In this document: in pieces, positions 26,383 to 48,021 of the stretch
How the letters are laid out: each line of letters opens with the position of its first letter
Numbering within the stretch: position 1 is the first letter of the stretch
Assembly: GCA_964530005.1 (NCBI GenBank)
Contig: CAZGZD010000001.1
Location: forward strand, 33,541 to 97,540
Origin: an uncultured Gammaproteobacteria bacterium
GTDB lineage: Bacteria; Patescibacteriota; Microgenomatia; UBA1406; GWC2-37-13
DNA: 64,000 bases
Reading direction: 5' to 3'
Notes under the pieces: model-generated
What the model saw: the letters and a program-made list of their open reading frames with translations, nothing else
Databases searched by the model: none
Told to the model about the DNA's origin: nothing
Translations under genes and position numbers: made by a program

Positions 26383-26387
26383 TCCGC

Positions 26388-27872: not shown

Positions 27873-27944
27873 AAATGACCTTCGTTGACATTACTTCTAC
27901 TCTCGTGCTATCTTTAGACTAAAGTATAGATTTTTATTGTTAAA

Positions 27945-29387: not shown

Positions 29388-29391
29388 TTCC

Positions 29392-31083
29392 TTAGGAAAA
29401 TTCTCGAGTAAAATATCTCACAATGCTATCCCGTCGAGAAATAAGGGTTTGTGCTACAAAATCACTCAGTGAATCAACCTCTCCATCTTGAAGTTTTTGC
29501 TGCAAAGCCTCAAACTGTCGCTGAGCACCGCTCGTCCACTCCACGTCCCGTGCATATTTTGCATTACCCTTAGCTGTAGGATCATCGGCTACTTTTGTTG
29601 CAAGTTTTTGTTGTTGAGCCTTAATCATCTCCAGGTATAGCTGAACCTGTGCGATTGATCCGTCCTTATCCTGTGGATATTCGGCAGCCGCGACAGCCTC
29701 TCTAATCTCGCCATCTCCCACCCGCCTCAAGCGCTCAACTTGCTGCGATATAAGACCCTTATCTTTTACCACTATTTGCCCAGAGTCGCGACCACCTTCA
29801 ACGGTCAATACTTGTGCGTATGCTTCATTTACCGGCACATCTCCATTGGGATCTGCATCTGGTATAGTGCGCACAATATCCCACAGATTCTGTGTTGTTA
29901 ATTCAGCAGGGAACTCTTTTACTCCCCCAGTTGCACGGGCATATAAAGCACCACCATGGTCGATAAAAGCAACCTTATCACCCTTCATCATTACATTGTG
30001 CGGGCGCCTATTGTACTGATTGTGCCAGATATCAACCAAAAGTCCTTCCTTAAGGATCGGGCTATCATGATACGCCTCAGATAATACAAAAGGATCAACC
30101 TCCTCAGTGTATGCTTCCAGAAAACCAACAACAAGGACTTTCTCTCCATCTACTTCCTGAATTGTCGTCTCTGGTACTGGTATGCCCATAGAGCGCATAA
30201 GTCTGTTCTCCACTACCTCAGCCTGAAGGGTATGGATCGGTGCTCGTTTGACTATAAATCGCCTACCTTCTGCAGTCTTCCATATCTCAACGCCGTGAGA
30301 TGCCTGCTGCATGTCCTTACCCTCAACTAATCGTCTGTCAAGTTTTGCGTGAGCAATATCAATAAAATCAGGATTAAGCTGTGCTCTGTCTTTTATGATT
30401 CCGCGACTTACAGCCTGCTGCAGTACCCATTCTCGAAGTTTTGTATTGTCGGCTAGAAGTTTATCGGCAAAAACACCAGAATTTGCTGCCCCTTGAGGAT
30501 CTACACTTTGAAGTAGAAGATTGAGCTTTTGTTGTAAAGCTTCGGTCGACAGTCCTGTATTTATGGTCTGAATTTTGACCTGGCCATTTATCACACGAAT
30601 TCTATTTTTGACAGGATTCTGATCGGCGCTCTTGGCTCCTTCTGTATGAGTCCATTCCAACTTTGGCGACTGCCCCCATTGATCAGCACGCACAGCATAT
30701 GCCAGGACGCTCAATTCTGGTGAGACAGTCAGATCTGTCGCAATACCAAGTTTTTTAAGCTCAATCAACACCTCTTCCAGCTGCGGCACTACCTGTCTGT
30801 CAACTTTTTGATAAAGCAATTTTGCCTCAAGTGTCTGGTGCATTTGATCAATCGCATCTTCATCTATAGCTCCTTCTTGTTGACCTCTTACTCTTTTACC
30901 TAAAAGGTCTTCAAAAGGCTTGATGTATCGAGTCTCTCCTTGACGGGCTATATGCATAGTAATTTTGTCTGCAGACGTAGGAAGGCGCATATTCTCCCCC
31001 TCAGGAGCTTGAGCAACTGCTTTGGGCGGAGGCCGATTATCTGGTCTTGGAGGCATTGAAATTTCTGTTCTAATATCTGTCAT
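29392..31083 (-). CDS. Atypical kinase-like protein (PI3/PI4-kinase-type or AFK-type catalytic loop)
   Basis: 563 aa. Candidate motifs are RFIVKRAP (beta3 Lys), LQAEVVENRL (alphaC Glu), LLVDIWHNQYNRRPHNVMM (catalytic D...N) and VAFIDHGGAL (DFG-equivalent). An alternative ATG at 31056 gives MPPRPDNRPPP. Confidence 0.5.
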   Translation of the reverse strand: MTDIRTEISMPPRPDNRPPPKAVAQAPEGENMRLPTSADKITMHIARQGETRYIKPFEDLLGKRVRGQQEGAIDEDAIDQMHQTLEAKLLYQKVDRQVVPQLEEVLIELKKLGIATDLTVSPELSVLAYAVRADQWGQSPKLEWTHTEGAKSADQNPVKNRIRVINGQVKIQTINTGLSTEALQQKLNLLLQSVDPQGAANSGVFADKLLADNTKLREWVLQQAVSRGIIKDRAQLNPDFIDIAHAKLDRRLVEGKDMQQASHGVEIWKTAEGRRFIVKRAPIHTLQAEVVENRLMRSMGIPVPETTIQEVDGEKVLVVGFLEAYTEEVDPFVLSEAYHDSPILKEGLLVDIWHNQYNRRPHNVMMKGDKVAFIDHGGALYARATGGVKEFPAELTTQNLWDIVRTIPDADPNGDVPVNEAYAQVLTVEGGRDSGQIVVKDKGLISQQVERLRRVGDGEIREAVAAAEYPQDKDGSIAQVQLYLEMIKAQQQKLATKVADDPTAKGNAKYARDVEWTSGAQRQFEALQQKLQDGEVDSLSDFVAQTLISRRDSIVRYFTREFS

Positions 31084-31103
31084 GTGAATTAGAGATGCTT
31101 AAT

Positions 31104-34100
31104 TTATATTTGTGGCTCAAATCGTTCACCTGTCCCATACGGCCCGTGCTGGTAGTCATAATGTTCCAGACCGGCGAAGAATTCCCGAATCTTAGCATCT
31201 CGATCATCTAGATCCTTCCATGTATATCGAGGAGCTTCTGTTCCCTCGGGAATAATGTAGAATCCGCGTGCTGGAGTACGCCTCATTCCCATGCGCTCAC
31301 CTGGTTTATAATCAAGCGTGGGGAATGCTGCTTGATAAAGCTCCTCAAGTGCATCCGGATTCTCCCGCACCGCCCCCAGCAGCTTATTCAGCTCTACCTC
31401 CGACATCTCATACTCCACATAAGCCGGAGTGAAAGTCCCCTCAGCACGACTATCAGGGGCTTTATCATCCTGGAAAAACTCCATCCTCAGGATCTTATTA
31501 CCCTCAACCGTTGAGGGCATAATTCGCACATACTGTTGATCAACCAACTCAGACAAACGTTTTCTTGCTTTATATACATCATTCAGAACTTCATTTACCG
31601 TATCAACTCGTCCATCTCGTACATAATTCAGCCAGTCTGGCCCATGATCAGAAAAATGACCTTCACTTCGAGCGGTTACTTCTTTTGGTACCTTACCTCC
31701 ACTTGTCTCACCTACATACGTGCCAGCCGGGAGCTTACCGTGGACGTTTTTCCCCGGTATCTTGATCTCTACCTCTTCACCCAGGTCGACTGTAGCTTCG
31801 GCGGCTGTGGGCGCACCTTCGGCAGATGCTGGCTGAGGCGTGACGATTTCTTTCTTGTCAGCCTTTGGTAAATTCAGGGACTTAAAATGCTCTCTTAGTC
31901 CATAAGATCTTTCTAAGACTGATTCAGAAATTGTTTGGATATTCGGATATTCCGGATCGATTTGTAAAGGTCGATTTACGTGACCATCTCTTCTTCTCTC
32001 GCTTCTATCATATTCAGGATATTTCGCTTTAAAAACATCCAATAGAATAGATGGATCTTTTGCCAAAATTGGGTTAAGCCGACTAGAATCTTCAGCTGGC
32101 AAAACTATGGCATAATCTGTATGTGAATGACCTCGAGAATCACCCTGTCTATCGTTAAAAGTAACTACAAATACAGACTCACCTTTTTTAGTACTGAGAC
32201 CAATTATCCGGGCATTAAATTCAGGTCCATTTTTCTCCTCATCAACAAAAGCTATTGACCATACTTGTTCACCCGTCAATGCACTCTCAATTATGCCCGC
32301 AGCTTGGCCATCTGTAAAAACTACCCCATGCCCCATAGGTCCTCCAGCAAATCTACCAAGAATGCCATGGGAATATTTGTGATCTGGATCCGTGACTAAC
32401 TCATTGACAGTGGCTGTGCGATCCTCAACAGTAAGAGGACTTTCTGGAATTGAGATAGTAGACTCAGCGGGTACGACTGGTTCGGCTACAAGTGGAGATA
32501 CTGGCATTTCTTCATCTGGACTTGCTGGCATGTGTGTAGCGACAGGTGCTGTGGCCTCAACAGCTATTGTATCCTCAGTGCGAGGAGCTATATATTTGGC
32601 TGCAACAGCCGACATATTTGCTATTCCCTCCTTGGAAAGAACGCTATATCCGATCAGTCGACTCACGACATCTCGGGGAGCAATATCTCGAGTGACAAGT
32701 TCTTGTATTACCTCATGGTAGGGCTTCTCAATTCCATCCCACAGTCCATCGGTCGTCAATACAATCTGCTCAATGTCATCGAGCTTGCCATTGAAAAATT
32801 CGGGGTTGGTGTCTGGCGACTTGAAGCCAAGGCACTTGCTTAGAAGAGCCACACCATCAACATCCACCTCGTGTGCGTCAGTCGTGAGCTGCTCGGCAGA
32901 TCCAGCGGATACCTTATATGCACGCGAATCGCCTAGATTGGCTCCTATATAACTACCATCATCGTTGAGCACGACGACGACGAGAGTGCTGGCTCCATCT
33001 ATGCCTTCATCACGATTGGCTAATTCAATGTGCTTTTGTGTTGTCCGAACTGCCTCGCGAAGAGCCTCTTCTGAACTCAGCCCCGCATCTTTTGCTGCGC
33101 TATAGTGCTCACTTATTGTATCCACAGTGATCTGACTGGCACGCTCACCTCCACTGTGACGACCTACGCCATCAGCTGCAATAAGCACTGTCTGACCATA
33201 AGTATCAAGTCGCAGGACTTTCACCCTATCTTGATTAGCTTGCTGCTCACCTTGCTCAGTACCGCTTACTACAATATATGGTCCTTGCCATCCCCAATCG
33301 ATTTCTTCTGCATTAGGCCGATCATTCAACTTAAAGGCTTTTATTCTGTCTGTCAAAATAAATTCATCTACCGTCGATGCGGCTTCTGTTGGCCTGTGAA
33401 TTACATCATCCCCTACCCGACCAAGGTTGCGCACGCTACGAGTTACTTTTCCTGCTACCCCCTTTGCCATACTTACTCCAGTCCTGAGTCGCGATTTTTT
33501 ACCTTTTTTTTCTAACTTTCTCAGAATTTTTTTTAATTCTTTGTCACTTGTTCGTCTATCACTTACTTCAGCCGTATCTTGGTCGAAAAACGTAGCTCCG
33601 TCGCCAGCTGGCTCTCGATCTGTTCGTATGGTAGCTGGCGTTTCGGTGACGGATGCCGGGGTAACACCGGGTTCTGTATGAAATCTGTTTATATCAGCAT
33701 CAGCCTCGGCGGATGAGGTATCGGCTGGCGTACCGGTAGTGCCTGTATCTCCCTCAATAAGATCATCTCCTCCTAGATCTTCTACATTAAACTCAGTCGA
33801 GCGACGAGATGCGGCTTCGCTGGTTTGATCCACCGTTGCGGCGCTTGACTCGCGCGGATTTTCGGTACGCACTATTACTGCCTCCTCAAGATCGGGATCT
33901 AAGACAACATCTGCCTCCAGATTCACGCCTTGTCCACGAAAACTCTCAAGCGATTCCTGACTATCTTTAATAAATTGATTTACCGCATTGATTTCATCTG
34001 CGAATTCTTTGGGATTCTTGGGCACCTCCAACTCGCCTCTATAGTCGGCTACTGTACCGGCGACCTCGGCTATAATCTGCTCCCATCGATACAACTCGTA

Positions 34101-37100
34101 TACTCTCTCTGGCACCATCACTGCGGCTTTGCTGCTTCCTGCTGTGATTTTGCGAATCTCGTTGGATTTGGGATCACTGTTTGGGTATATATATACTTCT
34201 GAAGAATTTACATTTGTCATATTTATACCTTCTGCCTCCTCAACCACAGATTGAAATACAGACCATAGCGGTTCATTGGCCGCAAACACCATATGAAGAT
34301 TGCGTGCCTGTGCTACAAATCGGTCGAGCTGTGCGAGTTCGGCATCTGTAAGATGTACTGTATCTTTGAATCGCGCTACACTATCCCCCTCGGGCTTGTG
34401 AATAGACTTTTGCCATATCTGTGTCAACAGATCTGAATCCCAGTCTTGTGTAAGTACTCGATCGACCGGAAGCACACGCTCTTTGGCTAGTTCTGGTGAC
34501 TGCTCAGACCCCGTATGGGAGGATTCGGGTTGAGTACCATCGGATGCTATGCGCATCGTGGCAACAGCCAGATCATCATCTGGGGCAGATCGCAGTGCGT
34601 TTTTGCCAGCTACTTCCCTGGCTTCACGAATAATCATATCCGCCAGATATGCCGGATCATCCCCATATCCTTCACCAACTCCTGCGCCGCTGAGACGTTT
34701 GACTGTATCTTGAGTGAGATTAAGTTTTATACCACGAGACATTATCAAAATCTCACTATCTTGAGGAGTAAGGTCAACATTGTGTATGCTGGGACTAAGC
34801 TCTGCACCAAAGAACATACCCAATAGTCTTCGCTGAGTAAAGTAATCACGAGCATTCTCTGTTCTACTTGGTAGGTAGGATCGAAGCTGGCCTTGTCGTG
34901 TATTTGTATCCAACTGCTTACGATAATACTCGTATTGCTTGCGCGTGATCTTGCCTTGCATAAGATCCAAGCGCAGCTGATCATCGTCCTGTGTAATCTG
35001 TCGAAGCTCGCCTTGACCTGTACGAGCATATGCCGCACCGGTGCCAAGGTGCATGATCACGGCAGAGGGAACCTCTTCACCATTTACGACTCGTGTATAA
35101 AGCTGTACTACAGTCCCACCTATGGACATGCGTGGCTCTTGATCTGCACCTATTATATTGGGTATAAGCGCAAGCTCGCGACCGATTTCTGCTTGAATCT
35201 GCAGATATGCCCGTTCAATCTGTGCTTCCGAGGGATTCGCTGGAAGCTGGGTAAGGATCCGGGTGGTGACATCAGCTGCTTTGGTAGCAATCTCTTGTTG
35301 ACGCGGTAGGTCTGGATTGCGCTCCCCAGAATCAAACATTGCGGTGAATCCTCGAACGGAATCTTGTGCCACAACTACTTCTTGTCTGTCTGGATGATTC
35401 TTGGCAGACTCTATTTTGTACACAGAAGCATGACCTTCATGACTCTTTTCTGATGTAACACGCAAAGCTCGAGCATCCTCAGGCTGGCCTTTTAGTTCAG
35501 GAAATCCATCATTCAACGTGACTGTCTCATGACCTGGCGACGTCTCCCCATACGAGCCAACTCGAGATCTTTCTATCTCCACGAGTACTTCCTTGGCATC
35601 GGGAGTAAGTGTGGGCGCTGCAAGCTCGCCTCGAGGCAGAACGTGAACAATGGCCTTTGACGCTTCAGGAGATGGTTGCGCCTCGGGTTCGAGCTCGACA
35701 ACAGTCGCCCCATCCGCACCTGAAACTGTTGATTCAGCAGGTGCAACTGATCCTGCTTCATCTGTTGATGGTGTTGCGCCTGTGCGGATTGTTACTGGGG
35801 TTTCGACTATGGGGGCTGCGACTGCTGGAGGAGGAGGCACTACTATGGCATCGGCATCCCCGGCTGTCGTGGACGGAGTGACGGGAACTACTGGTGGTAC
35901 AGTTGACTCAGGGATTGCAGTTTCAGTTTGTTCAACCGGCTCACTTAGTGGAGTTGCTGGTACTGTATCTCTGGGAGTTTCTCCAGTTGTTGCTGTTGCT
36001 TCGTGTGATGTTTGCGAAGGCGGTGTTGTTATCGTAGGAGTCGATGACAACTTCTTGACAATCACGATCGTCGTGTTGTCTGCGCCACCTGCCTCATTGG
36101 CTGCCATAATCGCGCTACGAACCATATCTTTTGGAGTATCCGACATCACGGCAAATCTCCAGATTTCTGTTGTGGGATCATGCCTTGTACTAGCCCACAG
36201 TCCATCTGAGGTAAGAAGTAAGTGCGCTTCGTCATTAAGCTTTCCTGGGAATATATCCACATCTACAGTCGGCTTATGCCCTATTGCTCTTGTGAGGGTG
36301 CTGCTTCGCTCATGAGTATATGCTTCCTCTTGAGTAATGCGACCCATATCTGCAAGCTCTTGAGCAACAGAATGGTCTTTGGTGATCTGAGATACTGCAG
36401 TCATCTCACCGATGGTATATCCACGGGAGTCACCAACGTTGGCAAGTAAATAGGATCCATCGTCTTTTAGAACCGCAGCAACTACTGTGGTACCCATTCC
36501 GCGAAGGTCTGGATTGCTTTGTCCCTCTTGGTAGACTGCTTCATTTGCTCGCTCGATCGCCACACGCAAAGCCTCCTCTTCGGCCATGCCGCTTATTCGA
36601 AGAGCCGTATATTCCTCCCGCACCTTTTTTGTGGCAATTCCACTCGCTTCAGCTCCTCCTCTGTGGCCACCCATACCGTCGGCAAGGATAAAAAGGCTCT
36701 CACCTAAATCATTTAGTCTGGTTTGAGTGAATTGGTCCTGATTATTTTTTCTCACTCGCCCCTTATCTGTTCCGGCAGCCCATAGATAAGGTCCCATCTC
36801 ACCCGACTCAACTCTGTCTCTTGCGTCTTTTGCCCCTTCAGTCGTCTCAACTGTAGCAGGTGCTTCCGTTGAAGACGATGGCGCTTCTTCTCGAGCCCCT
36901 GGTTTTCTTCTGGCTTTCTCCTCTCTCCTCACCCTTATTCTCTCTCTTCGAGTAGTAGGCGTGATGTCTGTCACTGAAGCATCTCCCGTATCTATCACTG
37001 ACGGCTCACTGGGTGGAGTTGATGGTTCTGTTGGAGCTGTGGGCTCGGGCACTACAGTTTCAGTTGGTTCAGGTGGCGGAGGAGGCGCTACTGTGACATC

Positions 37101-40100
37101 GGCATCAGCGGCTGCCGGTGTAGGAGTTGGTTCAGGCGCCGCGGGAGGCTCTACGGGAGTAGGAACCAGGGGCTCAGCTGGTGTTGGTTCTGCCGGTGGA
37201 GCTGGTGGCTCCGAAGGGGCTGGTGTGGGCGGTTCAGGGGTTGGCGGTACGGCTGGCTCCGGTGCAGGAGAAGATTCAGATGCTGCTGGTTCAGGTGGCG
37301 CAGCTGGCTCGGGGGCTGCAGTTTCAGTTGGTTCAGGAATTGGCGGAGGAGGTGTAGTCGGCGCAGGAGTTGGTGTGGGAGGGATTGGTGTGGGAGGGAT
37401 TGTTGAATTTCTAAACATAACACTTGCACGACCATCTTTGACGATAAACCCCTCGACAACCCACCCTCCGGATATTTTGCCATTAATATATGTAGCTAGT
37501 CCACTATGAACACTATCTAGTTGGGCACTGATCTGATCTTTGACTAAAGAATGCCTTCCTTTAAAAGTTAGCTCTTTTTTAGTCGGTACAAGCATATTAT
37601 GATCATCTGTCTTATACTGCACATCAACCAAAGTCGTCTTGCCGCCCCTTATCAATCCATGGCCTTCTATACTACCTTCGATAATCAATCTGTCTCCATC
37701 GATTCTAACCTTGCCGTCTTTCATCTCATCTAGACCTTTTTCTTTCAGTTTTTCATCTATGGGCTTTTTGGCAAATTCATTTAGATTTTCTTCAGTAAAT
37801 TCGATCCTAGCCTCAGCTCCTACAACATCGGCAAGCGTTTTTTCGATACTTACAAAAATGTCTCTCCCCGGCTCTGTCTCAAGTGGAATCGATGCTGGAG
37901 CTTCTGTTGGTGTGCCAGGAGTGGGTTCTGGAGGGGTTCTGGTTAGAGGGGTTGAGGGAGTTGTAGGTCGAACTGGGGCTGGGGGAATCTCACCTGTGTC
38001 GATTCGCCTCAAGATATCAAGAGCTGCTTGAGATACCACTTCTGACCGGATCTTATTTATCCATTTTTTAGCCTCATCTTTTTCATCATAATCAAATTTG
38101 CCCGTTGTGTCTTTGGGATCTGGCAATAATCCCTGATGGCGGCTGGCGCTGGATATCCAGACATTTGGAGTAAATTCTGGTATGTGCAAACTTATGACCT
38201 GTGGGCCACCCTCGACAACAGCCGCAATATGCGCAAATCCTGTGTCATTGCTAAGCACCAGATCTTGATGCTTAAGCAGCACACTGTTTTGCGCCATATC
38301 TCCTGTTATAAATCTAGCATTCTCAATACCCCCAAACACTCGCTCCAATTCCTCCTTCGAATAACTACCCTTGGTATTGATGAATATGTTTACTTCAGTA
38401 TCCGGCTGATCTGCCCGTATTTTCTCAATTACCTGCTTCCATTGATCTAGTGAATATCTTTTTGCAGTCAAGCTTGCCTCAATGACTATACCAACTTGTT
38501 TTTTGGACGAATCGATCTTATATTTATCGACAAGCTCTTGATACATCTCATCTGCATTAGCTGGAAGATCTATTCGTGGACGTGCGTGTACCAGACTCGG
38601 CGGAGATATGCTCAACAACTCTGCCAGGTATTGACTGAATCGATCATCCCCTGCTCTATCATAATCATACAGACCAACTGATGATGAGAATAAGTCTGAG
38701 GCTATAATAGTGTTATTGTCAGATCGTGCAACTCTGGGCTGCGCCGAATGATGGTCGAACTCAAAAACTACAGCATTTTGGATACCCTTGCTGCGAATGA
38801 GTTCCATCGACCTTTCCACTCCTTCGTATCGTTTCGTCGTTTCTAATTGAATATCTAAGTTCTGTACAAAAGGTTCAAGTAGCTTGTGGACATTGGATGG
38901 AGCAACTATGGTAACGTTTTTATCGGCGCCGCGGCTTCTTAAAAGTTTGGTAATACCATCTACATATGCTGTTGATAAGACTGTATCGCCTATTGCTCCT
39001 GATAATACGATATATACATCATCAGTCGCCATAAATGCGGAGTGCAGCTCTGCCAGAAGTCTTTCGCCGTCTGCAGATTCAAGAGCACCTCCGCCCTCCA
39101 CAAAATCAGCTATTCTTTTGGGTTTGCCTTCGGGACCGCGATATCTATCTACACTAAAGTCTCCATAGTTAAAGTATGTAATTTGCTCTTGTGCCTCCTG
39201 AAGTGGTTCAAGCGCAAACCGTGGGTAAAATGGCACAGGAATGATTGGGATATATGGTATGCCAGCCGGTGCTTCAGCCCCAGGTGGAATAAGCTCCATC
39301 GGAGGAGTCGGACGAAGGTTCAGGATAGTCTCATGACGAGGTTCGTGAAAGTGGATAGAGTTGTCCCCCCAATGGTAGTGAGGATCCTGGATCTGAAACG
39401 CAGACCCACCCAGCGATCTATGATCCCATTGAGTGATTACCCCGTCCTTAATCCGTATATCTCTAAGGATGACGCGGTCATGGTCTGAGGCATTGACCCA
39501 ATCCCATTTGTCACCATGTTGCACAAGTTCTGTCCCCTTGAGCATATGTACCTTGTGACCATCTATCAGTTGGGTCACCATGTGTCCTCGCTCTATACCA
39601 TTTCCAAAATACTCAGGTATAAGTTGGTCACCGTGGCGTATTGTCCAGCCTTCTCGCAACAGCTCGTCTCTCACTTCACGACCAAGTTGGGTATTTTCAT
39701 GAAATCCACGTCCAGCCAGCAAGTGTCCGTTGTGCATCAGCTTAAAATACGGCACCTCCTCATGTGCTGGCATACCGGGTAGCCCTGTGTTGGGACCGAG
39801 CTTCTCACCTGTTATACGATTATAGAATCCGATCTCGTTGGATGCCCAGTTATGCCTACCTTCGATATTTGAGGTGAGCCTCACAGTATTGTTTTCTCCT
39901 TTATGCCCCATAAAAAGCTCGTTTAGTCGCTGTTGTAGCAGTGTGTCTCTTGGGGGTCCCGCTTGATGTAAAGCCTCCACCACATGTTGTGCTGCCTGCT
40001 GCATACCGACTCCTACACCAAGTCCCGCTATTCCACCCACAGCACCGGCAAGGGCCACACTACCGCGGCGATAGCGACGAAACGCTCTATCTGCCTGAGT

Positions 40101-42308
40101 TCTCTCTTGCGTGTATTGCTCATTAAATTGATTTACCCTGTCGGTGAAAACCCTCGTCTGATCTGGTGTCAAGGAACCTCGCACTTGATCTACAAACTGT
40201 TCAAGCCGCAGTTGCTCTTGCTCAAGTACCGTAGATCCACCATATTGAATAAGCCCAATACCTTGTTCGTGTCCGAAATTGAGTCGGGATTCAATCTCAG
40301 CCGCCCGATCAAGTATCTGTTCTGCCGTAAGACCATCGAGTGTCAAAAGATCCTCTACTGAGCGCAGAGGAATCTGAAATCTCTCCATACGCTCTCGACG
40401 ATGAGAATTGGGTGCTACTTCGCCTCCCATCTGTCGCTGTGCTCCGTGCATCCATCTATCTCCTGATACTTCGCGGCCGCGACGAACAGCCGCAATAAGT
40501 GCACCAGATATTGTCCCCACGCCTGGAGCTGCCATACTTGCTGCACGAAGTGCCGTGCCGGGTAGCCGAAGTACACCCGCTGTCACAATTGCAAGCCCTG
40601 CGCCAACAAGCGCGGGATTGGCGGCATTCTGCCCACCTCGTGTGCGACGAATACGAATCACTTGTCGATCTACCCAACTCAATCTGGCTTGAGAATCATA
40701 TGCCCAATCGGCATTGGCAAGATTTATCGTGATCTGGTCTCGCCTATGATCAAGATAATCAAGGGCTGCTTGATGCTCTGATGCTGTAGCACGTATCTGT
40801 TGTCCCATCTCATATATATCAGTTGCAAAAAGGCTCGCCATACTTGCAAACTCATTGGCATCTCTACCAAAAAGAGCAGCAATATCTGCATTATCCTGAT
40901 TGTTGGCAACAAAATCGCGAATACGTTCCTGTACTTGGGCTGGCTCGGTGATCGTCCCATCTACAATAGGTCGTAGAATTTGCTCAATGAGCGCATCTTT
41001 TAGCGGGCCTTGGGCTTGTCTGAGGTCTTCACCTGTTCGAAGCCTTCCTCCTGTAAGATGCCCTATCTTAGCTGCGCTGGCTGCCTCAAAGTCTCCTCGC
41101 TGCGCGTCGACCTCTGCAACCTCTAAATTACTTCTTACTCCCCGATTGACCATCTGCATGGTGAGATACGAGGTATTGTTCTCAATCATAGCTCCACGTA
41201 CCTGAAAGTAAAATTTATTTTCATAGTAATCTTCGCCCAGGCGGAATTTGATACGACGGAAAAATCGTCGAGTGCGACCACGACTGCCTAGTATAGGGGT
41301 GGTGAGTTCATCCTGTACGGCTTCCTTTGCCATGAGACGAGATCTTTTTTCAACATCGATCTCGCGACTTGCAAGCGTACCCTCAACTCGAAGGTCTTCA
41401 ATAGAAGGAGGCACTGGTTCCAGATCAATGGGCTCAATGGGTGGCGATCCAGGCTCATGCGGGGGAGGAATCCCAGGACTTGGGGTTGGAGTAGGAGCTG
41501 GAGGAGCTGGTGGAATTTCCGGGGGCTCAATTGGCATTGGAACTCCCGGACTCCCGGGTGGAAGTGGTGCAACAGGCGGGGCTCCGGGCACATCAGGCGG
41601 CGGCGGTCCAGCTGGTGGTGGAACTGGAACCCCAGGCCCACCAGGAACTACTGGTCGGACAGGAGGTGCGGGCGGTGGTGGAACATCGGGTGGGGGCGGG
41701 GGCGCTATTTTTTTCTCTGGAGGAAGAAAAAGCTCTTTTCTTTTATTTATCATACCAGCCGCGATAACCTGGAGTTCATCATCTGTAAGTGGATGGCCAT
41801 ATTCTTCTTCAAGTCGGGCCATAACCGCATCATTTGCACGGATATCAGCCATCTCAACATAGATACGGGAAGTGTACTTATTGGGATCTTTTAGACGTCT
41901 GCGCTCATACTCTTTTCTATTTTGAATAAGTACATCTTTATAGTGCTCATACTTATCAAGCTCTAAAGCGTCCAATTCTTCAGAATTAATCCTCTCGTCA
42001 AGATACGTCACAATATCATCAACAGGCGCTCTCTCATCTATGCTGTAGACCAAATCACTGTCTTCTCGATGATCGACAAATCGGCGTCTTGTACGTCCTC
42101 TATTCTTGTCGATGGTTTTCTCTTTGAGTCTTTTGAGTGTCTCCTGACCATGAAGTTCACGAGCACTTAATGTGGCAGGATCTGCTGCCAAAAATATTTG
42201 AGCTCCCTCGTTAAATGCGCGAAGGACTTCTGCCCGCTCATAAGCAGGTGCGGCTTCTGGCCGGCGTAATGGTGGAGTTCCTTCAACTGGTGAGGGCCCG
42301 TCTGGCAT
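31104..42308 (-). CDS. Giant multidomain protein (3734 aa). It has a Pro-rich N-terminus, a polyproline tract, possible membrane hairpins, a GT9 heptosyltransferase-like domain, three PP2C-type modules (the middle one degenerate) and a duplicated C-terminal domain.
   Basis: A single uninterrupted 11.2-kb ORF with recognisable domain motifs along its whole length (see the sub-features below). Opposite-strand ORFs are low-complexity shadows. Confidence 0.9.
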   Translation of the reverse strand: MPDGPSPVEGTPPLRRPEAAPAYERAEVLRAFNEGAQIFLAADPATLSARELHGQETLKRLKEKTIDKNRGRTRRRFVDHREDSDLVYSIDERAPVDDIVTYLDERINSEELDALELDKYEHYKDVLIQNRKEYERRRLKDPNKYTSRIYVEMADIRANDAVMARLEEEYGHPLTDDELQVIAAGMINKRKELFLPPEKKIAPPPPPDVPPPPAPPVRPVVPGGPGVPVPPPAGPPPPDVPGAPPVAPLPPGSPGVPMPIEPPEIPPAPPAPTPTPSPGIPPPHEPGSPPIEPIDLEPVPPSIEDLRVEGTLASREIDVEKRSRLMAKEAVQDELTTPILGSRGRTRRFFRRIKFRLGEDYYENKFYFQVRGAMIENNTSYLTMQMVNRGVRSNLEVAEVDAQRGDFEAASAAKIGHLTGGRLRTGEDLRQAQGPLKDALIEQILRPIVDGTITEPAQVQERIRDFVANNQDNADIAALFGRDANEFASMASLFATDIYEMGQQIRATASEHQAALDYLDHRRDQITINLANADWAYDSQARLSWVDRQVIRIRRTRGGQNAANPALVGAGLAIVTAGVLRLPGTALRAASMAAPGVGTISGALIAAVRRGREVSGDRWMHGAQRQMGGEVAPNSHRRERMERFQIPLRSVEDLLTLDGLTAEQILDRAAEIESRLNFGHEQGIGLIQYGGSTVLEQEQLRLEQFVDQVRGSLTPDQTRVFTDRVNQFNEQYTQERTQADRAFRRYRRGSVALAGAVGGIAGLGVGVGMQQAAQHVVEALHQAGPPRDTLLQQRLNELFMGHKGENNTVRLTSNIEGRHNWASNEIGFYNRITGEKLGPNTGLPGMPAHEEVPYFKLMHNGHLLAGRGFHENTQLGREVRDELLREGWTIRHGDQLIPEYFGNGIERGHMVTQLIDGHKVHMLKGTELVQHGDKWDWVNASDHDRVILRDIRIKDGVITQWDHRSLGGSAFQIQDPHYHWGDNSIHFHEPRHETILNLRPTPPMELIPPGAEAPAGIPYIPIIPVPFYPRFALEPLQEAQEQITYFNYGDFSVDRYRGPEGKPKRIADFVEGGGALESADGERLLAELHSAFMATDDVYIVLSGAIGDTVLSTAYVDGITKLLRSRGADKNVTIVAPSNVHKLLEPFVQNLDIQLETTKRYEGVERSMELIRSKGIQNAVVFEFDHHSAQPRVARSDNNTIIASDLFSSSVGLYDYDRAGDDRFSQYLAELLSISPPSLVHARPRIDLPANADEMYQELVDKYKIDSSKKQVGIVIEASLTAKRYSLDQWKQVIEKIRADQPDTEVNIFINTKGSYSKEELERVFGGIENARFITGDMAQNSVLLKHQDLVLSNDTGFAHIAAVVEGGPQVISLHIPEFTPNVWISSASRHQGLLPDPKDTTGKFDYDEKDEAKKWINKIRSEVVSQAALDILRRIDTGEIPPAPVRPTTPSTPLTRTPPEPTPGTPTEAPASIPLETEPGRDIFVSIEKTLADVVGAEARIEFTEENLNEFAKKPIDEKLKEKGLDEMKDGKVRIDGDRLIIEGSIEGHGLIRGGKTTLVDVQYKTDDHNMLVPTKKELTFKGRHSLVKDQISAQLDSVHSGLATYINGKISGGWVVEGFIVKDGRASVMFRNSTIPPTPIPPTPTPAPTTPPPPIPEPTETAAPEPAAPPEPAASESSPAPEPAVPPTPEPPTPAPSEPPAPPAEPTPAEPLVPTPVEPPAAPEPTPTPAAADADVTVAPPPPPEPTETVVPEPTAPTEPSTPPSEPSVIDTGDASVTDITPTTRRERIRVRREEKARRKPGAREEAPSSSTEAPATVETTEGAKDARDRVESGEMGPYLWAAGTDKGRVRKNNQDQFTQTRLNDLGESLFILADGMGGHRGGAEASGIATKKVREEYTALRISGMAEEEALRVAIERANEAVYQEGQSNPDLRGMGTTVVAAVLKDDGSYLLANVGDSRGYTIGEMTAVSQITKDHSVAQELADMGRITQEEAYTHERSSTLTRAIGHKPTVDVDIFPGKLNDEAHLLLTSDGLWASTRHDPTTEIWRFAVMSDTPKDMVRSAIMAANEAGGADNTTIVIVKKLSSTPTITTPPSQTSHEATATTGETPRDTVPATPLSEPVEQTETAIPESTVPPVVPVTPSTTAGDADAIVVPPPPAVAAPIVETPVTIRTGATPSTDEAGSVAPAESTVSGADGATVVELEPEAQPSPEASKAIVHVLPRGELAAPTLTPDAKEVLVEIERSRVGSYGETSPGHETVTLNDGFPELKGQPEDARALRVTSEKSHEGHASVYKIESAKNHPDRQEVVVAQDSVRGFTAMFDSGERNPDLPRQQEIATKAADVTTRILTQLPANPSEAQIERAYLQIQAEIGRELALIPNIIGADQEPRMSIGGTVVQLYTRVVNGEEVPSAVIMHLGTGAAYARTGQGELRQITQDDDQLRLDLMQGKITRKQYEYYRKQLDTNTRQGQLRSYLPSRTENARDYFTQRRLLGMFFGAELSPSIHNVDLTPQDSEILIMSRGIKLNLTQDTVKRLSGAGVGEGYGDDPAYLADMIIREAREVAGKNALRSAPDDDLAVATMRIASDGTQPESSHTGSEQSPELAKERVLPVDRVLTQDWDSDLLTQIWQKSIHKPEGDSVARFKDTVHLTDAELAQLDRFVAQARNLHMVFAANEPLWSVFQSVVEEAEGINMTNVNSSEVYIYPNSDPKSNEIRKITAGSSKAAVMVPERVYELYRWEQIIAEVAGTVADYRGELEVPKNPKEFADEINAVNQFIKDSQESLESFRGQGVNLEADVVLDPDLEEAVIVRTENPRESSAATVDQTSEAASRRSTEFNVEDLGGDDLIEGDTGTTGTPADTSSAEADADINRFHTEPGVTPASVTETPATIRTDREPAGDGATFFDQDTAEVSDRRTSDKELKKILRKLEKKGKKSRLRTGVSMAKGVAGKVTRSVRNLGRVGDDVIHRPTEAASTVDEFILTDRIKAFKLNDRPNAEEIDWGWQGPYIVVSGTEQGEQQANQDRVKVLRLDTYGQTVLIAADGVGRHSGGERASQITVDTISEHYSAAKDAGLSSEEALREAVRTTQKHIELANRDEGIDGASTLVVVVLNDDGSYIGANLGDSRAYKVSAGSAEQLTTDAHEVDVDGVALLSKCLGFKSPDTNPEFFNGKLDDIEQIVLTTDGLWDGIEKPYHEVIQELVTRDIAPRDVVSRLIGYSVLSKEGIANMSAVAAKYIAPRTEDTIAVEATAPVATHMPASPDEEMPVSPLVAEPVVPAESTISIPESPLTVEDRTATVNELVTDPDHKYSHGILGRFAGGPMGHGVVFTDGQAAGIIESALTGEQVWSIAFVDEEKNGPEFNARIIGLSTKKGESVFVVTFNDRQGDSRGHSHTDYAIVLPAEDSSRLNPILAKDPSILLDVFKAKYPEYDRSERRRDGHVNRPLQIDPEYPNIQTISESVLERSYGLREHFKSLNLPKADKKEIVTPQPASAEGAPTAAEATVDLGEEVEIKIPGKNVHGKLPAGTYVGETSGGKVPKEVTARSEGHFSDHGPDWLNYVRDGRVDTVNEVLNDVYKARKRLSELVDQQYVRIMPSTVEGNKILRMEFFQDDKAPDSRAEGTFTPAYVEYEMSEVELNKLLGAVRENPDALEELYQAAFPTLDYKPGERMGMRRTPARGFYIIPEGTEAPRYTWKDLDDRDAKIREFFAGLEHYDYQHGPYGTGERFEPQI
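32590..33285 (-). other. PP2C-type module 3
   Basis: QQANQDRV, LIAADGVGRHSGGERAS, GASTLVVVVL, NLGDSRAY and IVLTTDGLWD. The final DN motif reads GIANMSAV (Asp to Ala). Confidence 0.7.
34545..35385 (-). other. PP2C-like module 2 with degenerate catalytic motifs (probable pseudophosphatase)
   Basis: It is colinear with PP2C but reads AMFDSGERN, GGTVVQLY, HLGTGAAYA (in place of GDSR), ILIMSRGI (in place of SDG) and DDDLAVATMRI. Confidence 0.5.
36050..36797 (-). other. PP2C-type Ser/Thr phosphatase module 1 (motifs intact)
   Basis: RKNNQDQF, ILADGMGGHRGGAEAS, GMGTTVVAAVL, NVGDSRGY, ITKDHS, LLLTSDGLW and GGADNTTIVIV. Confidence 0.85.
36985..37410 (-). repeat. P/T/E/A-rich linker containing a ~45-nt imperfect direct repeat
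   Basis: The DNA gtttcagttggttcagg...ggcggaggagg occurs at about 37041-37088 and again at 37306-37352. These encode APPPPPEPTETVVPEP and TPPPPIPEPTETAAPEP. Confidence 0.7.
38125..39025 (-). other. Glycosyltransferase family 9 (ADP-heptose-type heptosyltransferase-like) domain of the giant protein
   Basis: VYIVLSGAIGDTVLSTAYVDGITKLL...VGIVIEASLTAKRYSLDQWKQVIEKI...LVLSNDTGFAHIAAVVEGGPQVISL. The N-terminal xGD motif, the central K/R-x-W motif and the DTGxxH motif fit GT9. Confidence 0.7.
41410..41725 (-). other. Polyproline (FH1-like) tract of the giant protein
   Basis: IAPPPPPDVPPPPAPPVRPVVPGGPGVPVPPPAGPPPPDVPGAPPVAPLPPGSPGVP...PPIEP. Coordinates were located through the reverse complement around 41701-41740. 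Confidence 0.8.
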
Positions 42309-42323
42309 TTTAAATAATTTTTT

Positions 42324-42755
42324 TTAATTTACAATCTTCTGATTCTTCGCAATATATTTATCCACAGTCATTCCGGTATTACTTGGCTTATTTCTTTCTA
42401 ATACTACACCGCGAAGATATGTATCGCGAAAATCTCCGAAAAGATCTGTAAAGACTTGCTGAGCGTCAGGCAATTTATCCTGAAGAAACTTCTCAACTTC
42501 AGCCTGCGGCTTACCATCTTCATTCATCTTTACGAACTCTTCGACATATTCATCTGGTAATCTATCTACAATAACGGAAATGATATAGCTATCAAGGCGC
42601 ACAAATAGCTCCTTTATCATCTCCTCATGACTCGCCTCATCAAGAGTCACCGCACCGGCGTCGACGAGGATGCTCTCAAGATACGCACGAACATCTGGGG
42701 TAATCTCCAGAGGTTTTTTCTCTGCAGCTTGGGCTGCTTGTTGTACATCTGCCAT
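42324..42755 (-). CDS. DUF5663-like small helical protein
   Basis: 143 aa. The pattern EEMIKELFVRLDSYIISVIVDRLPDEYVEEFVKMNEDGKPQAEVEKFLQDKLPDAQQVF resembles the Patescibacteria DUF5663 family. This is recalled, not searched. Confidence 0.5.
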   Translation of the reverse strand: MADVQQAAQAAEKKPLEITPDVRAYLESILVDAGAVTLDEASHEEMIKELFVRLDSYIISVIVDRLPDEYVEEFVKMNEDGKPQAEVEKFLQDKLPDAQQVFTDLFGDFRDTYLRGVVLERNKPSNTGMTVDKYIAKNQKIVN

Positions 42756-42783
42756 AGACTTTTAAATAATTAATAATAAATAA

Positions 42784-44460
42784 TTACTGTCCTGTGCCTT
42801 GCTGACCTTTATTCCTTTTCCCTGCTGAGCGTGCCAGCATAATAAGACCAACAGATCCCATACTAAAAATGATAAGTAGCATCTTTCCTATTTTTTTGCC
42901 CTTCTCAAAATATGCAGCTCGCTTAAGTTGGCGTTTGATTAATTTGACTAAGTCAGGATGCATCAGCTCCTTCTCATCCACTTGCTTGAAAAAAGATTTT
43001 CGAGCTTTCTTATCATTTGCAAGCTCTGTAAACGAGTCTATTAGGTTGCCAAGCGAATTTTTTCCACCGCTGACTCCAAAAATTGCAGCAAGTGCATCTA
43101 GGTCATTATCCGTAATATGTGGCATTCCCTCAATATTTTGAGGTTCTGCCTTGTCATCCATCTTTACCTTACCAGTCTTTCTTTGCTCGACAAGATTTTC
43201 CTCTTCACTAGATAGATCTTCAAGCTTTTTCTGTTTATTCTTAAACTGGTCTATCTCTTGCTGGATTCTCTTATTCTCTGCTATATTGGCAGCAGAATCT
43301 GCAGGAAGCAATTCTGGTTCGCTATGCGGCGCTTGCTTACCAATTTGGGTAATATTCCACCTTATATATCCAATCTCAAGCTCCAAAGCACTAGCAATAA
43401 GACGCGGGTTATTCTCAGCAATCCCTCTTTTCTTCATTTCCCTCGCTTGCTCTTTGATAAAGGTTGCAGGTTTTCTCTCCGCTGCAACTTTGGCAATAAT
43501 CATAAGCTCATCTCGAGCAAAGTCCGGCTTATATCCCTCCTCAAGTATTTTTTTCTTAAACTCTATCCCTAACCTTTTCAAATCATCTTCTTCTTGCCGC
43601 TCACGATCCGCCACTTCTTTGGACTTGTAAGACAGTGGAGTTGCGCGGCTTATTGCATGATTCAAGTCGTCAAGATCTTGCTGCTCTACGTCACTAAGCT
43701 TCTCACCCGCATCCCACTTATTCATAAGAGTATTCCATAGCGCACGATCTTCATCGGATAGGCCTGATACGATCAGCTTTGCGAAGCCTTCGGCGTCATT
43801 GATATCAGTCGGCTGAGTCTCCTGCTTATATTCTCCCTCAACTACTTCAAATAATTTTGGATCCTCACGATCTATAAATTCTTCGCGCGGATTGACATTT
43901 TCGATACCGCTTTTGTGTAATTTGGCCAAATGCTCTCGATATACTTGAGTACCCATGTATTTCCCGAGAGCTTGATCTTTGCGTCTGCTTCTCAACTCTG
44001 CGGCATATTCGCGCTCTTCTTGATCTGATTTGAACTGCCCCGTCTGTTTTCGCCTCAACTGGCTTCTAAGATCCTCGCGTATCTGTTGACTATATGCATT
44101 CTTAAACTCGCTTGAGAACTCAATATTTACAATCACATCACCTGTGTTGACTACATCTGGGATTGCGTGTGGAGGTGGTGCTGGGGAGTCGGGAGAGTCA
44201 TACCAAAGCCCTCCATCCACAGGCACAATATTTGGAGCATCACCATGGTCTGTGGCATCTTTGGTTTTAGTTCTCCTGAGTACTTCGTCAAGCTCCGGGA
44301 ATTTTTCCCTACTTGGATCGATTCCTAATTCATGCACAGGCTGCTCCACGATACCAACAGTTATCTGATCATCCACTGCGAGTTGACTTGGTTCCTGAGG
44401 AGTAATATCCGCTGGCTTTGGGCGTGGTCTGTCGACTTCTAAGGTATCCATATTTTTCAT
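42784..44460 (-). CDS. Pro-rich-N-terminus, coiled-coil, C-terminally tail-anchored membrane protein (paralog of 12150..13253)
   Basis: I prefer the ATG at 44460 (MKNMDTLEVDRPRPKPADITPQEP) to the TTG at 44466. The C-terminus is MLLIIFSMGSVGLIMLARSAGKRNKGQQGTGQ. Confidence 0.7.
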   Translation of the reverse strand: MKNMDTLEVDRPRPKPADITPQEPSQLAVDDQITVGIVEQPVHELGIDPSREKFPELDEVLRRTKTKDATDHGDAPNIVPVDGGLWYDSPDSPAPPPHAIPDVVNTGDVIVNIEFSSEFKNAYSQQIREDLRSQLRRKQTGQFKSDQEEREYAAELRSRRKDQALGKYMGTQVYREHLAKLHKSGIENVNPREEFIDREDPKLFEVVEGEYKQETQPTDINDAEGFAKLIVSGLSDEDRALWNTLMNKWDAGEKLSDVEQQDLDDLNHAISRATPLSYKSKEVADRERQEEDDLKRLGIEFKKKILEEGYKPDFARDELMIIAKVAAERKPATFIKEQAREMKKRGIAENNPRLIASALELEIGYIRWNITQIGKQAPHSEPELLPADSAANIAENKRIQQEIDQFKNKQKKLEDLSSEEENLVEQRKTGKVKMDDKAEPQNIEGMPHITDNDLDALAAIFGVSGGKNSLGNLIDSFTELANDKKARKSFFKQVDEKELMHPDLVKLIKRQLKRAAYFEKGKKIGKMLLIIFSMGSVGLIMLARSAGKRNKGQQGTGQ

Positions 44461-44462
44461 AC

Positions 44463-44906
44463 TCAATTTTTTCTTGATTTGGCTTTTAGAATATGTTTGA
44501 TTACTTCCTCTGCCTTACCATACTCTCCTTTTTTAACTAGTTGAGAGGCATGTGCCACAGTCGGTTCGCCAAACACTTTTTCATATATCTCCCGCACTTT
44601 TTCGACTGCTGGAGCAATTTCGGCAAAATCATCTTTGAGTTTTTGTGCTTTGAGATACAGCTCATCCACACTTGCGCCTAATTTTATGTCCTCAAGAGTC
44701 TGTGTGGCAATATCGCCTGCTTTCTCCGGATCAAGAGAATTATCTTCCAAAAGCCTGTCAATCTGCTGAAGAATCTCAGTCTCAATAAGCATTCGAAACA
44801 TGTCCTCGATTGAGTGAGATTGTGTGGAGCTTTTCGAAGGGTCAGAAAGTGGCATTTTTATAGAATCCAGTTTTGTATAGGTGGGAAGCGTAGTGTGTGT
44901 TTGCAT
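44463..44906 (-). CDS. Small helical hypothetical protein (module partner; counterpart of 11820..12146)
   Basis: 147 aa. Its stop lies 2 nt before the next ATG, and it is the first gene of the long minus-strand operon. Confidence 0.6.
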   Translation of the reverse strand: MQTHTTLPTYTKLDSIKMPLSDPSKSSTQSHSIEDMFRMLIETEILQQIDRLLEDNSLDPEKAGDIATQTLEDIKLGASVDELYLKAQKLKDDFAEIAPAVEKVREIYEKVFGEPTVAHASQLVKKGEYGKAEEVIKHILKAKSRKN

Positions 44907-44916
44907 CTATATATAC

Positions 44917-44946
44917 AATATAGCTATCTTTTTACGATAAAATCAA
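44917..44946 (-). promoter_or_regulatory. Candidate promoter of the giant-gene operon: TTGATT, 18-nt spacer, TATATT
   Basis: On the minus strand the -35 is at 44946-44941 and the -10 at 44922-44917. The ATG at 44906 lies 10 nt downstream. Confidence 0.4.
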
Positions 44947-44960
44947 GTGCAATTTGCACT
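44946..44960. promoter_or_regulatory. 15-bp palindrome agtgca-att-tgcact abutting the -35 (candidate operator)
   Basis: Two 6-bp perfect inverted arms, located in the divergent intergenic region between 44906 and 45048. Confidence 0.3.
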
Positions 44961-45047
44961 ATTTTTATCCGCTAAAAAGAATGCTGTCGTGACAATCTAT
45001 CCAGAAGCTGAAAAACATATTTTTGGCCGTGCTATACTTGACATCAT

Positions 45048-46327: not shown

Positions 46328-46420
46328 TTTAAATCTCCCAACACAATCTGCCGTACTTTGGCTCAAAATGAAAAATAAATAGAGATTTTTGAGAATTAAA
46401 CTATAATAACCGTAAGTAAT

Positions 46421-46723: not shown

Positions 46724-46754
46724 CTCAATTCTTTTTACCTTTTCGTTTTCAGCT

Positions 46755-48008: not shown

Positions 48009-48021
48009 TTACTTCCTTTAA

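Follow-up and report, generated by a model that had tools for sequence, protein, structure and literature searches.

An intact 3,734-residue protein of a Patescibacteria bacterium combines a conserved, DUF5663-paired N-terminal chassis with GT9 and PP2C-derived modules

A 64,000-nt stretch of contig CAZGZD010000001.1 (hereafter the window) was found to carry, at 31104..42308 on the minus strand, a single uninterrupted open reading frame (ORF) of 3,734 codons with an ATG start and no internal stops, and this giant ORF is a real, intact chromosomal gene of a Patescibacteria (Candidate Phyla Radiation, CPR) bacterium. The product is the largest member seen here of an uncharacterised, Patescibacteria-restricted protein family, in which residues 1-770 form what we infer to be a conserved, membrane-associated chassis. 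The initial annotation, made from the letters of the window without database searches, had correctly read a 3734-aa protein from one ORF and nearly every item of its domain chain, but had left the N-terminal third largely unassigned and had focused on the enzymes. Comparison with relatives reversed this view: the N-terminal third is the conserved core, common to 342 representative proteins, the enzymes are the swappable part, and the organising unit that had been overlooked is the chassis paired with a DUF5663 gene directly upstream. What is new here is this undescribed chassis and its partner, the components (membrane-anchored Ser/Thr signalling proteins and a GT9 glycosyltransferase) being of known kinds.

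That separate genes were fused by assembly or annotation into this ORF, which the initial annotation had named as one outcome that would overturn it, has a negligible probability. An identical 3,734-aa product was found on four contigs that were read, including Logan assemblies of two different runs; NCBI and ENA record it as well, with the longest contig reaching 119 kb. A near-identical variant of the protein, sharing 3732 of 3734 residues, also exists. Contig L001 was colinear with the window over 18.6 kb with one mismatch and contig L002 over 14.4 kb with none, and since independent assemblies agree over such distances, an assembly fusion is excluded. The G+C content of third codon positions is even along the gene (0.34-0.42), and relatives of 1,500-3,100 aa show the same domain order. 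In favour of a fusion, the orthologue on contig L020 (2543-6902), the closest found, changes frame just past the Pro-rich region and appears as two ORFs, one of 337 aa and the other of at least 1,110 aa; this split may reflect either a sequencing error or a genuine separation of the N-terminal domain N1. DNA tandem repeats in the giant gene numbered only four, all short, and none lay in the N-terminal Pro-rich tract. Promoter-like sites did not exceed their frequency in shuffled sequence, and for terminator-like sites the excess was modest and confined to weak matches. Composition counts agreed with three low-complexity regions that had been read from the translation, namely a polyproline tract of about 100 aa (50 Pro in residues 201-300), a His/Trp-rich region (18 His and 6 Trp in residues 801-1000) and a P/T/E linker (58 Pro, 26 Thr, 21 Glu and 25 Ala in residues 1601-1800). 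The whole protein contains a single Cys.

The family was delimited by an exhaustive HMMER search of 1.84 billion representative proteins with residues 300-1450 as the query, which returned 342 chassis relatives at E<=1e-3, of which 98 reached E<=1e-30. These are mostly 1,000-2,500 aa long, the best being only 37% identical to the giant, and the named members came from Candidatus Daviesbacteria, Levyibacteriota and metagenome-assembled genomes labelled 'Patescibacteria group'. In the literature on DUF5663 (PF18908), on CPR bacteria with PP2C and on giant CPR proteins, no paper was found that describes the chassis family or DUF5663. The giant itself contains, in order, the N1 domain, the N2 helical domain, a hairpin opening with an N-P-A motif, a helical domain lying between the hydrophobic segments (the 'between' domain) and a third hydrophobic helix, which places it in the DUF5663-linked chassis family (Table 1). 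Motifs shared across the family include FGRDATQYG..AEYFATDLLE, LANTxWAAET, NPAxxGA and RRNYDLKVDRA, the last being the basic stretch that follows the hairpin in most relatives and reads RRGRE in the giant. The Gly/Ala-rich hydrophobic segments that had been noted from the sequence are indeed present, three in number (562-580, 590-608 and 749-767), and their positions are conserved across relatives, with the third segment falling about 190-200 residues after the first.

Two confident structural models of the chassis were obtained. With AlphaFold (AF2), a 52-sequence alignment of residues 300-800 gave a mean predicted local distance difference test (pLDDT) of 82.6 and a predicted template modelling score (pTM) of 0.80, and a 38-sequence alignment of residues 1-205 gave a pLDDT of 92.6 and a pTM of 0.83. 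Foldseek comparison of both models with the PDB returned no match better than E 0.1, with TM scores of about 0.1-0.2, and the best PDB fold match of the N1 model stood at E 0.4; the model of residues 300-800 likewise had no match better than E 0.1 in BFVD. The top viral Foldseek matches, to tape-measure or 'minor tail' proteins, were rejected as generic helical similarity. No Pfam or NCBIfam model was found for the chassis region. Beyond the third hydrophobic helix, the His/Trp-rich region was matched by about 5-7 relatives (E 1e-5 to 5e-3) and is 38% identical in the L020 orthologue, and the P-I-I-P-V-P-F-x-P-R motif at its end recurs in the family consensus. An HExxH sequence (HEPRH) is present inside this region at residues 988-992 (window 39333-39347), where the tblastn alignment with the L020 orthologue stops short; as a meaningful motif it was set aside, being probably due to chance.

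The DUF5663 gene is the obligate partner gene of the chassis family. In all 27 distinct loci with upstream sequence it was found directly upstream of the chassis gene and on the same strand, in most of them with a gap of 0-15 nt or an overlap, and the encoded proteins were acidic in 14 of the 15 examined (net charge -7 to -15). A DUF5663-like gene upstream of the relative P0132 (contig L003, 7666-7998) encodes a basic protein (net charge +13) of weak similarity (E 2.6e-6). In several Microgenomatia-type loci (L004-L007 and L015) the pair lies amid genes for ATP synthase, an ABC ATPase, a class Ib aminoacyl-tRNA synthetase (PF00579) and RecG, and annotated loci of this housekeeping neighbourhood also hold NusB and RNase III. 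On contig L020 the order is the 147-aa gene, the 560-aa gene, DUF5663 and the giant, as in the window, and it is conserved up to the contig end; the two upstream genes are 57% and 65-74% identical to those of the window, and the giant orthologue is 60% identical in N1, 38-48% in the chassis and 40% in GT9.

A search for orthologues, which had been proposed as the means of finding the constant domains, showed that the chassis is the conserved part and that GT9, PP2C, Hanks kinase and FHA modules are exchanged behind it. Segments of the giant were compared by phmmer with the best 150 of the 342 relatives, and the counts are given in Table 1. A Pfam census of 20 long members yielded PP2C/PP2C_2 (4-5 members), Pkinase (3), GT9 (3), SpoIIE (2) and FHA (1), and no typical extracellular domain (adhesin, Ig, lectin, dockerin or cell-wall-binding). 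Hanks kinase domains were present in the payload, as the modules behind the chassis are called here, of at least six members, and in five of six no hydrophobic segment lies between chassis and kinase; these kinase domains had already been reported by Pfam, and a PknB kinase-domain probe was used for location only. The combination of a glycosyltransferase with several PP2C modules, described initially as an architecture not recognised, has no characterised precedent, but it is not confined to the giant, as GT9 and a PP2C-type module also share one chain in P0021, P0024, P0028 and P0132. The 3,132-aa P0170, identical to P0132, is labelled 'ADP-heptose:LPS heptosyltransferase/serine/threonine protein phosphatase PrpC' in IMG. 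This protein and MDO8619026.1 of Candidatus Daviesbacteria (2,186 aa, 'protein phosphatase 2C domain-containing protein') resemble the giant in the chassis, the upstream DUF5663 gene and the order of GT9 followed by PP2C-type modules. The chassis of P0132 is visible only in alignment A2 and not by single-sequence search. The neighbourhood of P0132 is syntenic, with an inositol monophosphatase, a glutaredoxin and the kinase-like gene; P0132 differs from the giant in an additional FHA domain and a 900-aa N-terminal extension. None of these family members carries three PP2C modules, and the best chassis identity is 37%.

Within the payload of the giant, the GT9 domain predicted initially was recovered by profile search, with PF01075 matching at E 8.9e-9 and 35.5 bits against a cut-off of 22 bits. 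As a single sequence this region found nothing significant in the PDB; a profile built from it and its stand-alone relatives matched the solved GT9 structures 3TOV (1.2e-12) and 1PSW (1e-5). Like the GT9 heptosyltransferases (WaaC/WaaF, 1PSW; the Veillonella enzyme, 3TOV) and the protein-heptosylating BAHT enzymes (TibC/Aah), the GT-B domain of the giant has the G-D, Lys and N-D-(T/S)-G-x-x-H motifs. It differs from the heptosyltransferases in being fused into a giant protein and in scoring only about 35 bits to Pfam GT9 and far below the NCBIfam heptosyltransferase cut-offs, and the scores against lipopolysaccharide (LPS) heptosyltransferases I and II (26 bits against 185.3 for TIGR02193, 12.7 against 134.6 for TIGR02195) do not place it with either of these. 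The Patescibacteria phylum is not known to make LPS. The domain that follows, at residues 1470-1625, which had initially been read as an unknown beta domain, scored below threshold to the LmeA-like family PF11209 (E 8e-4, 20 bits against a cut-off of 27.3) and is possibly LmeA-like and lipid-binding; LmeA is a mycobacterial cell-envelope protein.

Of the three PP2C modules predicted initially, modules 1 and 3 were found directly and the degenerate module 2 through intermediates only; the full set of catalytic motifs was found only in module 1. Profile searches of the whole protein detected PP2C, as they did GT9, above the Pfam and NCBIfam cut-offs: PF13672 scored 107 bits against 24 (E 1e-30), PF00481 58 against 20.3, and the Stp1 model NF033484 292.6 against 230, the last with its best stretch at residues 1847-2085. 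Module 1 aligned end to end with Staphylococcus aureus Stp1 (PDB 5F1M, E 1.8e-34). In the PPM family a binuclear metal centre is held by the Asp residues of conserved motifs, for which (E/Q)D, DGxGG, GDSR, (S/T)DG and DN were expected, and because activity depends on these residues it was predicted module by module. In a joint alignment, module 1 has NNQD, DGMGGH, GDSRGY, TSDG and GGADNTT, a complete set, and on this basis it should be an active phosphatase. Module 3 is about 33% identical to module 1 (residues 3001-3219 and 1831-2067, local-alignment z 40) and matched Stp1 in the PDB at E 6e-10 over its N-terminal half only; it keeps NQD, DGVGRH, GDSRAY and TTDG, but in the last motif, GIANMS, the Asp is replaced by Ala, and its predicted activity is doubtful.

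Module 2 was undetected by direct BLAST, Pfam or PDB sequence search, and its pairwise similarity to modules 1 and 3 was not significant (z 0.9 and 0.1), so that the self-comparison proposed initially for the repeats bore out the likeness of modules 1 and 3 directly and reached module 2 only through intermediates. It is considered PP2C-derived because four relatives (P0024, P0053, P0105 and P0028, one of them annotated as a PP2C protein) match it at E 1e-11 to 1e-16 and match module 1 at the same place at 1e-7 to 1e-11; a sub-threshold match to Stp1 (E 0.037) is in register. At the motif positions it reads RQEVVV, FDSGERN, LGTGAAY, MSRGIK and DDDLAV; it keeps only two of four ligand Asp residues and lacks the Gly-rich loop, and these losses mark it as a predicted pseudophosphatase. 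The similar linkers said to precede each module are present as a short motif, but their mutual similarity reached only E 0.15-0.26.

The closest characterised counterparts of these modules are the Stp1/PrpC phosphatases (S. aureus Stp1, 5F1M; Streptococcus agalactiae Stp1, 2PK0), with which module 1 aligns end to end while keeping every metal motif. The resemblance extends to the stp/stk operons of Stk1/PrkC kinases, in that the giant likewise adjoins a kinase-like gene. Stp1, however, is a soluble single domain of about 250 aa, whereas in the giant three PP2C-derived modules, of which two have damaged metal sites, are part of a 3,734-aa protein that is probably membrane-associated, and the adjacent kinase candidate is PI3K/HipA-like and not of the Hanks type. 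A membrane-tethered PP2C is known in PstP of Mycobacterium tuberculosis (1TXO/2CM1; module 1 similarity E ~1e-26), which consists of an N-terminal phosphatase, one membrane helix and an external domain. In the giant, the anchor is N-terminal, with three marginal hydrophobic segments and an unrelated conserved chassis.

The C-terminal third appears in none of the best 150 relatives: residues 2600-3734, comprising residues 2600-2880, module 3 and the putative copies C1 and C2, were matched in 0/150, and for C1 no homologue was found in Pfam, NCBIfam or the PDB either. The duplicated C-terminal domain read from the translation gained partial support, as the alignment of C1 with C2 reached a Smith-Waterman z of 5.7 and a score attained by 0/300 shuffles; at only 22.9% identity over 175 aligned positions, the duplication is suggestive.

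Table 1. Features of the giant gene and its neighbours in the window, with the number of the best 150 chassis relatives in which a segment was matched
Feature	Window coordinates (strand)	Residues	Relatives matched (of 150)	Evidence or remark
N1 domain	41709..42308 (-)	1-200	39	conserved alpha/beta N-terminal domain; phmmer
Pro-rich spacer	41409..41708 (-)	201-300		50% Pro
N2 helical domain	40629..41411 (-)	300-560	117	motifs FGRDA..F(A/S)TD, LAN..WA
Gly/Ala-rich hydrophobic hairpin	40485..40625 (-)	562-608	90 (hairpin region, 555-640)	near-invariant N-P-A at start
'Between' helical domain	40065..40484 (-)	609-748	74 (segment 640-745)	pLDDT >90 in model
Third Gly/Ala-rich hydrophobic helix	40005..40064 (-)	749-768		within 68-residue helix of model
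His/Trp-rich region	39219..39941 (-)	790-1030		ends in conserved P-I-I-P-V-P-F-x-P-R
GT9 (GT-B) domain	37983..39080 (-)	1077-1442	53 (segment 1070-1445)	G-D, K-R-Y and N-D-T-G-x-x-H motifs kept
Domain at residues 1470-1625	37434..37901 (-)	1470-1625		PF11209 sub-threshold; stretches in P0147 (1e-7) and P0148
Pro/Thr/Glu/Ala-rich linker	36879..37433 (-)	1626-1810		composition
PP2C (segment census)			8	
PP2C module 1	36039..36818 (-)	1831-2090		Stp1-type, all metal-binding motifs kept
PP2C module 2, predicted pseudophosphatase	34542..35435 (-)	~2292-2589		transitive homology; sub-threshold Stp1 match, E 0.037
Region at residues 2600-2880	33669..34511 (-)	2600-2880	0	no Pfam, NCBIfam or PDB match
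PP2C module 3	32535..33308 (-)	3001-3258	0	PF13672 best stretch 3021-3200
C-terminal copy 1 (C1)	31869..32411 (-)	3300-3480	0	pairwise alignment to C2
C-terminal copy 2 (C2)	31107..31721 (-)	3530-3734	0	pairwise alignment to C1
DUF5663 gene	42324..42755 (-)			143 aa, net charge -11, 15 nt upstream of giant; PF18908 E 1.6e-4
Kinase candidate gene	29392..31083 (-)			563 aa, 20-nt gap downstream of giant
Two upstream genes	42784..44906 (-)			147-aa helical protein; 560-aa coiled-coil protein with C-terminal hydrophobic tail

Immediately downstream of the giant, the 563-aa gene looks like a PI3K/PI4K/HipA-like kinase candidate on the evidence of weak profile matches that converge in three orthologues. 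The window protein itself matched HipA_C (PF07804, E 0.03) and HipA_2 (PF20613, E 0.04), and its orthologues matched PI3_PI4_kinase (PF00454, 5e-5 and 2e-3) and HipA_2 (PF20613, 1.8e-3), all below threshold; a profile of the family found nothing significant among PDB sequences. The core QYNRRPHN..FIDHG (NRRPHN...IDHG) is invariant in the 563-aa protein and its orthologues; in L009 an orthologue follows the chassis gene directly, and in L003 one is found close to it. Next to it, a 480-aa inositol monophosphatase family protein is encoded at 27945-29387 (+), with the Pfam domain covering residues 31-278 only and no match for the C-terminal 200 aa; an Inositol_P gene also neighbours the giant relative in L003. 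Farther along, at 23839-25857 (-), lies a gene for a 672-aa Cys/Gly/Ser-rich protein that begins with a membrane anchor and ends in a type I dockerin domain, and the same flank of a related genome (L019, below) holds a 700-aa dockerin protein.

Our tentatively preferred reading would make the giant protein a hub that is tethered to the membrane, acts in the cytoplasm of the cell itself and couples Ser/Thr dephosphorylation to a glycosylation step. The chassis would anchor the protein in the cell membrane and act together with the small DUF5663 protein, which is probably co-translated and likely to be a chaperone or adaptor. The payload of about 2,950 residues, as modules strung on disordered Pro/Thr/Glu/Ala linkers, would lie at the inner membrane face. 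There, module 1 may dephosphorylate substrates of a nearby kinase, with the adjacent 563-aa PI3K/HipA-like protein as a possible opposing kinase, while modules 2 and 3, with their damaged metal sites, would serve as docking or regulatory pseudoenzymes and not as phosphatases. GT9 would act at the same membrane face, where GT-B enzymes such as LPS heptosyltransferases normally work on lipid-linked acceptors. A cytoplasm is the probable site of the payload because its enzymes need ATP, phosphoproteins and nucleotide sugars, and because sister proteins carry Hanks kinases and FHA domains at the same position.

Several observations weigh against the hub. Although the hydrophobic segments are there, the membrane insertion that the initial annotation had suggested for them is not certain, as crude Hessa-scale sums of the insertion free energy were marginal (+2.6 to +4.8, with +4.5 and +4.8 for the hairpin); family medians were +3.7 to +5.6, and most helices of transporters encoded in the same window gave -3 to +1.8. 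The segment flanks and the hairpin loop all carry a net positive charge, so that the positive-inside rule leaves the topology unsettled. Were all three segments to span the membrane and the N-terminus to be cytoplasmic, as the missing signal peptide would indicate, the payload would come to lie outside the cell, where GT9, PP2C and kinases would be without substrates. The segments may instead be monotopic, partner-dependent or like the weakly hydrophobic helices of exported membrane effectors. The assignment of the downstream kinase draws on sub-threshold matches only. Finally, the genome GCA_964401915.1 (L019), about 92% identical at the nucleotide level over window 46394-57304, is without the whole 18.7-kb block at window 26330-45047 that holds the 147-aa and 560-aa genes, DUF5663, the giant, the 563-aa gene, the inositol monophosphatase and a 494-aa gene. 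In its place are 3.7 kb of unrelated genes (L019 16887-20615), including those for tail-anchored coiled-coil proteins, GIY-YIG and MerR, and identity falls to 78% in the flanking Pth gene and to 70% in the flanking Zn-ribbon gene. Variation of this kind between strains would be more typical of accessory genes or genes for host interaction than of housekeeping regulators. L019 also has pairs of a small protein and a tail-anchored coiled-coil protein, analogous to the 147- and 560-aa genes but of no sequence similarity to them.

An external payload could also mean that the giant is an extracellular surface protein, for example an adhesin, with its modules held outside on mucin-like Pro/Thr linkers. 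The odd number of hydrophobic segments, the long Pro/Thr/Glu/Ala linkers, the single Cys and the sub-threshold match to LmeA (PF11209), a phospholipid-binding family, would fit such a protein. As the nucleotide sugars, ATP and phosphoproteins on which GT9, Hanks kinases, PP2C and FHA depend are not available outside the cell, and as the 20 long members held no adhesin, Ig, lectin, dockerin or cell-wall-binding domain, this is considered highly improbable.

The main alternative to the hub, somewhat unlikely but one that would place the enzymes in a cytoplasm, is a host-directed effector platform, in which the protein or its payload is exported into the host of the CPR cell. The chassis would then be a trafficking or membrane-insertion module, DUF5663 a secretion chaperone, and the modules would use host ATP and nucleotide sugars. 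The arrangement of a conserved N-terminal region before a variable C-terminal enzymatic array agrees with this, as does the small acidic partner encoded immediately upstream, which resembles the chaperones of type III, type IV and type VI secretion system substrates. Marginal, Gly/Ala-rich hydrophobic segments such as those of the chassis have been reported for secreted membrane effectors, their odd number with a cytoplasmic N-terminus predicts an external C-terminus, and the block is strain-variable here, being missing from L019. Genes of a type IV secretion system (T4SS) also lie near: in the window a VirD4-like gene at 8623-10818, and in L003 six T4SS pilin genes beside the pair. The former, on the plus strand, encodes a VirD4/TraG-like T4SS coupling protein and follows a gene for a 1,082-aa orphan protein (span 5385-10818), and the latter (L003 1-6728, just upstream of the DUF5663-giant pair) are accompanied by a gene for a 1,092-aa protein.

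Against export stands the fact that in several Microgenomatia-type loci the pair is surrounded by housekeeping genes and secretion genes are missing from the neighbourhood, that Pfam and NCBIfam searches revealed neither a known secretion signal nor a trafficking domain, that no immunity-like gene pattern was seen, that the payload consists of signalling enzymes and not of classic toxins, and that no relatives were found on IMG/VR viral contigs; the export of some 400 kDa with three hydrophobic helices would moreover be demanding. The logic of a conserved Gly/Ala-rich hydrophobic anchor or delivery region, variable enzymes and a small adjacent partner gene is shared with MARTX, the large clostridial glucosylating toxins and polymorphic toxins. 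The giant differs from all of these in having no sequence or fold similarity to them, a signalling cargo, no immunity gene and, in several loci, a housekeeping context. It does not conform to a polymorphic toxin, since no trafficking or toxin domain was found in Pfam and NCBIfam (PADLOC and PHROGs were not searched) and the downstream gene, of 563 aa, is kinase-like; nor does it conform to a SLATT effector with two transmembrane segments, for which NF033634 gave 14-15 bits against 41 with 47/132 profile positions covered.

A further and very unlikely possibility is regulated proteolysis, in which an S2P-like metalloprotease would cut a hydrophobic segment, either the NPA hairpin or the third helix, and free the N-terminal domains or the payload, in the manner of SREBP/S2P or of the regulated intramembrane proteolysis of anti-sigma factors. 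Its basis is a polytopic membrane protein of 230 aa, the gene of which adjoins DUF5663 in divergent orientation in 15 of the 27 distinct loci and lies within 10 kb in two more (L006 6868-7560 (-), L009 7696-8427 (-) and 13 other loci being the adjacent cases); the protein has the invariant motifs FLPGxxIHExxH and GNTMFSSKKDLEG (HExxH; NTMFSS-KDxEG) and weak Peptidase_M50 matches (E 0.08-0.14), making it a candidate S2P-like intramembrane protease. The N-P-A at the first hydrophobic segment is moreover near-invariant, and in SREBP, cleavage by S2P requires an Asn-Pro within the membrane segment. The matches behind the protease assignment stay below threshold, however, divergent adjacency is weak functional evidence, and a cleavage site is not predictable. 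No orthologue of the 230-aa protein was found in the window, where the only canonical M50 site-2 protease gene (20264-20911 (+), 215 aa, HEIAH ... NLLPVSPLDG) lies 22 kb away. A very small share of the probability is assigned to none of the readings given here.

On a broader and distinctly unlikely view, DUF5663 and the chassis would together form a Patescibacteria-wide, undescribed membrane machine of two new folds that presents or releases swappable cargo (kinases, phosphatases, pseudophosphatases, FHA and GT9), maybe into the host of the episymbiont or after S2P-like cleavage at the NPA segments, and the giant would be its most heavily loaded known version, with cargo found nowhere else.

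Patescibacteria account for a large share of bacterial diversity, yet a function is known for only a minority of the conserved genes specific to their lineages. The two-gene unit of DUF5663 and chassis is strictly conserved across Microgenomatia-type and other CPR genomes, and it combines two confidently predicted domains that are without structural relatives in the PDB with a payload dominated by Ser/Thr phospho-signalling enzymes and GT9. The giant itself offers a natural example of one PP2C predicted to be active and two PP2C-derived pseudoenzymes on a single chain. The interest of the finding rests mainly on the family and on the site at which the payload acts. If this is the cell's own cytoplasm, the protein would probably have a major part in regulating envelope growth, as a hub, in bacteria that lack most classical regulators; if the payload acts in the host, the family would be a candidate effector-delivery platform for episymbiosis, which can now be tested.

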